Source: Hydrolagus colliei (taxonomy: Eukaryota). From it: a stretch of DNA of 64,000 nucleotides. Both the position numbers and the translations under genes were made by a program. The stretch is from contig CM068748.1 of the NCBI GenBank assembly GCA_035084275.1, forward strand, positions 806,001-870,000, in the 5' to 3' direction. Within the stretch, counting starts at the first letter, position 1. Each line of letters opens with the position of its first letter. Positions 26,996 to 28,127 of this stretch are shown here, one piece after another. The notes beneath the pieces were generated by a model. It did no database searches and was not told the DNA's origin. It saw only the letters and a list, made by a program, of their open reading frames with translations.

Positions 26996-28042
26996 ACTTT
27001 GCTTGGCAATCTCGAACTCAGGTTTCCCCAACCCCAAAAGTCTCGATCAGTTCTTTCTTTCTCTCTCCTGTTTGTTTCTCTGTATGAATGTCACTTATTC
27101 TCCTTTTCTTTCCACTCCCAATAATTTTTCTCCTGATCCTGGCCTCGCTACATTTCTCTCTTGTTTATCTCGCCACAGGATCCTCCTCTGAAGCATCTTG
27201 CTCACGCTGGCGCCATTGTTGAGTAAAAATGCTGCAGAACCACTCCGAGTGATTTCGTGAATTAGCTCATTTTTATCTTCCTCGCACAACAATAAATAAA
27301 TGGAGCGCACATTAAATGCTGTTCATGCTAATTACTGCCGTAAATACTTTTAAATAGTTCAAACTGATAATCTATAATTACTTGGACAGACGGTTTCCCT
27401 AACGTAAAACACTCCATAACATCGGACTATGTAATCCATAAAGTCCAGATGTGTAGTCCAAAATCAGTCAGTAATTTATTCCTGCATTTAACTAGCAGCA
27501 CTGCTTATCGCGTCAAAAATATGTTATTCTAACAGGCAGCATAAAGGTTTCTTCCGTGGAAAGAATTCAACCGCGGAATTAAAAGAATACATTTCCGCAA
27601 TGTAAACAGCGGTAATTTGTGTGTTTTTTTGGGCGGAAAGATTAGTTCCTAAAGAACCATGTCATTCAAACTTTGCAATACATATTTTAGATGGGGAAAA
27701 ATAGTGTGAATTTCCTTTTTTTGCAAATGCTGTTTATGTGTAAGCTTTCATTTCAGTGTGGTTAACTTTACCAAATGTCAAGAGAGTAATTATATTCTGA
27801 CTGAGTGTTATTCAGTCTCTTTTAAAAAATATATTTTTAAACCTCAAGAATTGTTTCAGCAGATGTCATGCTTTCAAGTTTAAGGAGATGAGCACAAATA
27901 AACTCCCAATCGCCTCTCCAATGTGTAAACCACATCTATAGCTGCTGTCTTTTTCCCTCCTTTGAAGTGCACCAAAAATGTCATGTGTCGTGAATACCAC
28001 TGTGCATAAGCCAGACAATTTGCTCACTCTCAAAATCCTTAC

Positions 28043-28127
28043 CAGTTTCAACAGTTATTTGGTATCCAGCCTCTAGTCTCCGCGATGACCTTTCCAAGCG
28101 TTCCGTATTATCCAGCAGCAAAGCTCT
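28043..28127 (-). CDS. VTI1A: VTI1A internal coding exon (orthologous to human exon 5), 85 nt, phase 0/1: RALLLDNTERLERSSRRLEAGYQITVET-(G); start of the Qb-SNARE motif
   Basis: The minus strand reads aattttgtttcag|AGAGCT...GAAACTG|gtaagg. The translation matches human RAHLLDNTERLERSSRRLEAGYQIAVET. Confidence 0.97.

Follow-up and report, generated by a model that had tools for sequence, protein, structure and literature searches.

The start of intron 5 of VTI1A in Hydrolagus colliei raises the question of whether the short reading frame that continues past the exon 5 donor is the selected end of a soluble SNARE protein or the passenger of DNA conserved for another reason. The stretch analysed, hereafter the window, is 64,000 nt long, and positions are those of the window unless another contig position is given. 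The reading favoured here, with a little more confidence than doubt, is that the first 160 nt or so of the intron form a non-coding cis-element, probably an enhancer of TCF7L2 whose 5' end is shaped by splicing, and that the peptide is likely its passenger. The element is likely regulatory and not a selected protein end because its conservation passes the stop codon and survives in a bony fish that has lost the frame.

VTI1A exons and the read-through frame

VTI1A is encoded on the minus strand of the window, which contains exon 4 (32981-32898, upstream of exon 5), an intact neural microexon of 21 nt encoding LIKLREE with AG/GT ends (30786-30766), and exon 5 (28127-28043); the remaining exons are outside the window on the same contig. 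Exon 4 shows a two-residue insertion common to the elephant-shark VTI1A, and deletion of the vti1a neural microexon in zebrafish gives a mild social phenotype (PMC12626424). Exon 5 has 85 nt and a CAG acceptor, encodes the N-terminal third of the SNARE motif, and ends at the donor G|GTAAGG at 28042 (minus strand). It matches elephant-shark VTI1A at 96.6% (tblastn), and its changes relative to the fish locus L002 are distributed 5/2/15 over the codon positions with 25 of 28 amino acids identical, which is a coding-type pattern. Intron 5 is 53,031 nt long, and exon 6 starts with G|AACAAATTGG at C15:781011.

When the donor is ignored, the frame continues exactly as the original prediction described, with GKDFESEQIVWLMHSGIHDT followed by a TGA at 27983-27981, and this ORF of 20 codons plus TGA (27981..28043, minus strand) has homologous tails in other vertebrates. 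Its length alone is ordinary, since at least 20 open codons follow 32% of 5000 random starts on the minus strand. The EQI of the tail had been seen as an echo of exon 6: the resemblance is real, as exon 6 begins with AACAAATTGG, but it is six residues out of register, and the EQI of the tail coincides with the GTGAG donor motif plus the conserved CAAATTGTC block. A further VTI1A-like match (37%) at G000:C17:8563970-8564149 is unbroken across the position of VTI1A intron 5 and is likely VTI1B.

Distribution of the tail in vertebrates

The homologue search gave 431 matches, and tails were taken from the 120 listed among them and from cluster look-ups. The short mammalian VTI1A peptide cited in the original prediction exists, both among the matches listed and in annotated models. 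Amniote-type tails comprise 47 distinct sequences, counted as sequences and not as species: 40 end after GKNSESEQIVLLMHS[S/G]LHNT, five have W in place of the stop and continue, and two diverge after codon 15. If W is counted as TGA (code 4), 45 of the 47 keep length and stop. The two divergent tails (P0014 and P0156) both leave the common tail directly behind codon 15 (MHS), which a weak third donor or the assembly may explain. From lizard to mammals the amniote tail is invariant bar one S/G site. Among frogs, Hymenochirus shows a tail of 20 aa, with the 20 codons kept despite 10 differences, and X. tropicalis one of 21 aa, in which a net change of +3 preserves frame and stop; the changes seen in tails include F/S and W/L. 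Fish tails are of 7 aa in bichir, 64 in conger, 12 in Characodon (goodeid) and 12 in three otophysan models; none of them resembles the shark-amniote tail, and some may be spliced last exons. The window, the amniotes and two pipid frogs keep frame and stop, and Leptobrachium and the ray-finned records do not.

Read-through models of 162 or 169 aa are annotated in Tupaia (tree shrew), Castor (beaver), Halichoerus (grey seal) and the bats Phyllostomus and Pteropus; the named tail-bearing models also include a horned lizard, and some of the named models may be ab initio predictions. The whole 162-aa protein, exons 1-5 plus tail, is encoded on two contigs of 1129 and 939 nt (P0011 and P0128), which requires a spliced RNA, either mRNA or pre-mRNA spliced in part. 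An RNA in which exons 1-5 are joined and which continues past the donor was found for mammals only.

Conserved element downstream of the exon 5 donor

The conserved element, of approximately 160 nt, is located at the start of intron 5 (27885..28042, minus strand) and was delimited from mammalian read-outs, the frog read-out P0017 and blocks shared with L002. It is AT-rich, abuts the splice donor and is single copy, with no paralogous copies found in the genome search. Window and mammalian read-outs match in frame and without gaps over 53 codons, with 15 of 20 codons identical before the stop and 20 of 32 after it (Fisher p=0.38, a comparison of low power), and the four mammalian read-outs compared differ at 0-1 of 20 codons ahead of the stop and at 1-4 of 35 beyond it. 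The sequence beyond the mammalian stop comes from the five W-at-stop read-outs, and the tetrapod evidence consists of protein read-outs, the real DNA sequences compared being two. Conservation shows no fall at the TGA, and the coding-type constraint expected of the tail is not borne out.

The only outside DNA locus recovered is L002, one from the 595 candidate stretches covered in a metagenome scan; it presumably belongs to a bony fish, as its tail resembles that of Characodon. L002 keeps GAGTGAGC, AGCAAATTGTCT, ATGACATTTT, the TCAAAGG block and ATTTGTGC in the same order, spread by insertions, and its read-through is an unrelated 22-mer. The collinear chain of exact matches between window and L002 scores 42 nt, while the best of 374 masked control tiles reaches 28, and marks the DNA past the donor as homologous to this locus at a level above chance; the gapped-alignment score is weaker, being equalled by one of 500 shuffles and three of 287 unmasked tiles. 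The ATTTGTGC block (27892..27899, minus strand) is the last block common to L002, and the mammalian and frog read-outs match the window through this point. In the frog Leptobrachium (P0017), the window is matched in a shifted frame for 22 aa and the original frame is regained further on. The element is thus conserved across distant vertebrates outside the annotated exon and independently of the reading frame, both in the 32 codons past the stop and as blocks without the ORF (L002 and P0017). The claim that the isoform is conserved across jawed vertebrates is not supported, as the ORF is missing in every ray-finned record examined and frameshifted in Leptobrachium. Under a neutral model without indels, with the first six bases fixed and rates fitted to the observed identity, frame and stop are kept in 44-57% of runs.

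A second frame over the element (28042-27869, minus strand) is open for 58 codons, a length reached from 4.7% of random starts, and a protein search found no database homologue of it. Protein searches in other frames for the tetrapod bases gave nothing, five long matches of 30-43% identity being judged unrelated from the table only. For further vertebrate DNA, a scan of prokaryote genomes returned none and a viral scan returned six sixteen-base matches, taken as chance.

Second donor site and possible hairpin

The element contains a second donor-like site, AGA|GTGAGC, at intron +16 (28022..28027, minus strand), whose use adds 15 nt in frame. The resulting form, GKNSEKQIG, occurs in 17 of 247 VTI1A-like sequences, and those whose names were checked are rodent RefSeq models. 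L002 DNA retains GTGAGC at +81, out of frame. Back-translation at +16 permits GTGAGA in Hymenochirus and GTAGGC in Xenopus (GT[AG][AG]G for the frogs) and GTAAGT in bichir, whose early stop arises from these same changes; the conger tail does not allow the motif at this position.

The second donor is covered by a possible hairpin of 8 bp, in which +16..+23 pairs with +30..+37 (28006..28027, minus strand), proposed from pairing and back-translation. The window shows seven of the eight pairs, and under best-case back-translation the amniote tails and three frog tails permit all eight and conger six. The extra base of the frogs falls in the hairpin loop, and the L002 hairpin folds at -10.6 kcal/mol. 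Under random changes, the probability that all pairs are kept is 0.20 for two changes and 0.10 for three. The folds of the window do not exceed those of shuffles (z of +1.51, 0.21, 1.77 and 0.36, with 0.21 for the hairpin region), and an Rfam covariance-model search of the element gave no match of weight, so that it does not qualify as a structured ncRNA. Since best-case codons were used and the window folds no better than shuffles, the hairpin is a suggestive lead only. Hairpins that sequester a 5' splice site are known in MAPT exon 10 and SMN2 (TSL2). The VTI1A candidate resembles them as a short stem over a donor-like GU near an exon end, but would cover the secondary donor and not the main one. 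A long helix between the first and last blocks of the element was rejected, as its duplex energy is ordinary and 13% of 300 controls are as good.

Transcription factor motifs and the TCF7L2 neighbourhood

The stop codon lies within the ATGACATTTT block (27975..27984, minus strand), an exact 10-mer common to L002, where the copy is well beyond the point at which the read-through first stops. It contains TGACA, which we take to be a TALE (MEIS/TGIF)-like motif. The TCF/LEF-type site ACTTCAAAGG (27959..27968, minus strand) is the only match to ASWTCAAAGG in the 64 kb, where 1.03 are expected anywhere, and the motif was picked after seeing the sequence. All five mammalian read-outs and one frog read-out allow the site, and 13 of 100 shuffled frog tails also permit the motif somewhere. 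In L002 its counterpart is ACATCAAAGG, which fits the Wnt response element (WRE) consensus (PMC4963812).

A CTNNB1-binding domain is found at C15:665676-665813, on the same strand and 35 kb past the last VTI1A exon match. The first exon match of this TCF/LEF gene, at C15:665813, comes directly after VTI1A and 168 kb from the element in the transcriptional direction. From known synteny this gene is presumably TCF7L2, and the element is thus syntenic with a developmental transcription factor gene. VTI1A is listed among the 100 most UCE-rich human genes that do not encode transcription factors (PMC13513235), and in the interior of TCF7L2 nine of 13 conserved regions are reported as enhancers in mice (PMC3349716). 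Enhancer activity of the element is predicted from its motif and position.

Early ends of VTI1A transcripts and the predicted product

The AATAAA that had been placed about 500 nt past the stop is present at 27480-27475 on the minus strand (27475..27480, intron +563) and is the first below the stop. Its occurrence is at chance level, since for 46% of 5000 random positions one is found within 503 nt, and its flanks are weak, with no UGUA in the 100 nt upstream and a downstream U fraction of 0.36. Further downstream, at intron +745 (27254..27298, minus strand), the window shows a homologue of the alternative last exon of the TM-less elephant-shark VTI1A (P0258 and P0022), with 10 of 14 residues identical and a score of 52 vs. 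27 for the next best in the three sense frames of the intron. No AG is found directly before this stretch in the window, and the next AATAAA after it is at 26271-26266. Since the end peptide of the TM-less elephant-shark form maps to intron +745, the short isoform of the nearest annotated relative splices past the element. Early ends are common in VTI1A: 76 of 247 sequences stop no more than 70 aa past exon 5, and their tails begin in 61 different ways. Loss of sfpq in zebrafish gives a cryptic last exon somewhere in vti1a (PMC7997972), and the tables of an intronic poly(A) atlas give a VTI1A site that retains 14% of the coding region (PMC5928244), a fraction which places it in a much earlier intron.

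The predicted product would be without the TM anchor, as originally proposed, and without two thirds of the SNARE motif, and would retain the Habc domain together with 20 of the 65 positions in the SNARE profile; PF12352 spans residues 125-189 of P0044, in which exon 5 ends at 144. A profile search did not detect PF12352 in the 162-aa form, which does not contain the complete SNARE motif of a Qb-SNARE able to zipper, and AlphaFold gives the tail residues 145-162 a pLDDT below 50 (14-sequence alignment). As 20 of 65 SNARE positions remain, PF12352 is undetected and the tail pLDDT is low, a role of the short product as a zippering decoy appears unlikely, and any role would more likely be exerted through the Habc domain.

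Tryptophan at the stop codon

At the stop, five of 45 amniote read-outs show W and none shows any other residue, and three of these five have a same-intron partner that stops. This pattern could come from ADAR editing of the stop UGA to UGG, which would give a tail of 56 aa, an explanation that we consider highly improbable. Editing was rejected as the source of the W read-outs, all five of which are ORFs of DNA type with no splicing. In the intron translated upstream of them W is enriched (12 of 361 vs. 11 of 1233, p=0.002, one sequence contributing half), which would follow from a gene caller that took TGA as Trp, so the stop is probably intact in these mammals, which counts in favour of the original prediction; the stop is probably invariant in amniotes. 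Also against editing, the stop A is mostly unpaired in the inferred mammalian folds, and the best distal partner in the 104 kb pre-mRNA reaches -27.4 kcal/mol, a value that 10 of 15 control queries equal. A 5' neighbour G is disfavoured by ADAR, and the 5' neighbour of the stop A is G. None of the 59 conserved sites of PMC4053846 is in VTI1A, the main text of that paper mentions neither VTI1A nor chr10, and the searched parts of the supplements of PMC6724681 and PMC8897444 gave no VTI1A editing site, a weak blank. The read-outs P0013, P0132, P0133, P0165 and P0167 are vertebrate ORFs apparently called with TGA as Trp, a form of annotation that mimics stop-codon editing.

Alternative explanations and known systems

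Under the favoured reading, of a non-coding cis-element, the 3' blocks (TGACA, the TCF/LEF-type site and ATTTGTGC) would be bound by transcription factors that regulate TCF7L2, and the second 5' splice site at +16, contained in the first 40 nt and probably folded in the hairpin, would keep splicing at the proper donor of the 53-kb intron. This site would leak as the five-residue insertion of the rodent models. Skipping of the donor by an RNA that ends early in the intron would give the TM-less product of 162 or 169 aa, seen in mammals from annotation and two spliced contigs, as one among many early-ending VTI1A transcripts, and the tail would look conserved because the underlying DNA is constrained and indel-free in sharks and amniotes. 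Against this reading are the near-invariant amniote tail, the +3 change of X. tropicalis and the 20 codons of Hymenochirus, and the post-stop conservation also fits the 3' UTR of a real isoform. An isoform of this kind, selected and made by intronic polyadenylation in cartilaginous fish and most tetrapods, lost in ray-finned fish and with the post-stop conservation as its 3' UTR, is unlikely on balance and still deserves weight; if it exists, it would more probably act by way of its Habc domain, or in the nucleus as soluble syntaxins do, than as a four-helix decoy. It is favoured by a length and stop common to the window, Hymenochirus, X. tropicalis (with +3) and 40 of 47 amniote-type tails, or 45 with W taken as TGA, by the models annotated in five mammals and the spliced proteins on the 1129- and 939-nt contigs, and by the precedent of the soluble syntaxins (10.1101/162958). 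What weakens it is conservation that does not fall at the stop, an ORF that is gone where the blocks persist, and a frame and stop kept by chance in about half of such comparisons; moreover, the AATAAA is at chance level, the TM-less elephant-shark form takes a downstream last exon instead, the atlas tables put the VTI1A poly(A) site in a considerably earlier intron (PMC5928244), PF12352 is undetected in the 162-aa protein, some of the named models may be ab initio and the spliced contigs may be partly spliced pre-mRNA.

An element acting in RNA only, in which a tandem U1 site, the hairpin and protein-binding blocks would secure the exon 5 donor and suppress early cleavage with no enhancer role, is quite improbable. 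The element begins at the donor itself, GTGAG is retained in fish DNA, and the bichir tail permits the stronger GTAAGT while its ORF is destroyed; the frog changes are hairpin-compatible, at the probabilities given above for two and three random changes, and intron 5 contains many cryptic last exons, to which the zebrafish one on sfpq loss may be added, located somewhere in vti1a (PMC7997972). These points are opposed by window folds no better than shuffles, the lack of a weighty Rfam match, one of eight hairpin pairs broken in the window and two in conger, a pairing support drawn from best-case codons, and the presence of a site of WRE consensus. Finally, a switch older than the shark-tetrapod split, in which a hairpin-gated second site would choose between 53-kb splicing and a selected soluble Vti1a fragment and the same DNA would be a TCF/LEF-bound enhancer of TCF7L2, is a conjecture to which we give little credence; in that case the 160-base element would be at once peptide, splicing switch and Wnt feedback site. 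If the isoform itself is selected, it would be an ancient soluble Qb-SNARE form and could affect the reading of Vti1a knock-out and antibody data. If the cis-element reading is true, the widely annotated 162-aa VTI1A isoform would be a by-product, with a CNE mimicking a conserved coding tail, and the element would be a candidate site through which Wnt/TCF signalling feeds back on TCF7L2, a locus with links to diabetes and cancer.

The element resembles the intronic CNEs of bystander genes, described for the TCF7L2 locus (PMC3349716) and fitting the UCE richness of VTI1A (PMC13513235), in being single copy, approximately 160 nt long, AT-rich and beside a TCF/LEF gene, and in having motif blocks that cartilaginous fish and mammals have in common and that are spread apart in a bony fish. 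Unlike them, it borders directly on a donor, includes an alternative one and coincides in part with a read-through that can be translated; the TCF7L2 CNEs were enhancer-tested (PMC3349716) and the VTI1A element is known here from its sequence. The short form is similar to the composite-last-exon isoforms of intronic polyadenylation (PMC5928244) in that the donor is skipped, the stop is in the intron and the anchor is lost, but its tail is known from annotated models and two contigs, and its AATAAA is at chance level. It also recalls Stx3S, Stx1AS and Stx2S, SNARE isoforms with no TM anchor and a short novel tail, some of which diverge inside the SNARE motif (10.1101/162958). Those soluble syntaxins are Qa-SNAREs from cloned transcripts, with nuclear targeting shown and with unrelated and dispensable tails (10.1101/162958), whereas the VTI1A short form is a predicted Qb-SNARE protein with 20 of 65 SNARE-profile positions. 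No paper on the VTI1A tail isoform, the element or the editing site, or placing an enhancer here, was found in the literature searched, subscription journals being outside its coverage. The isoform is already in RefSeq/GenBank, and the element, which is of a known kind, may already be in published UCE or enhancer lists.

Conserved blocks upstream of exon 5

Two more blocks common to the window and L002 are found in the intron before exon 5, at 30146-30104 and 30022-29995 (minus strand), and both are single copy. The first corresponds to L002 255-297, with 88% identity over 43 nt (E 5e-9), and shows TGACA as the near-palindrome TGACATCTGTCA. The second corresponds to L002 447-474, with 82% over 28 nt (E 0.66), and also contains TGACA.
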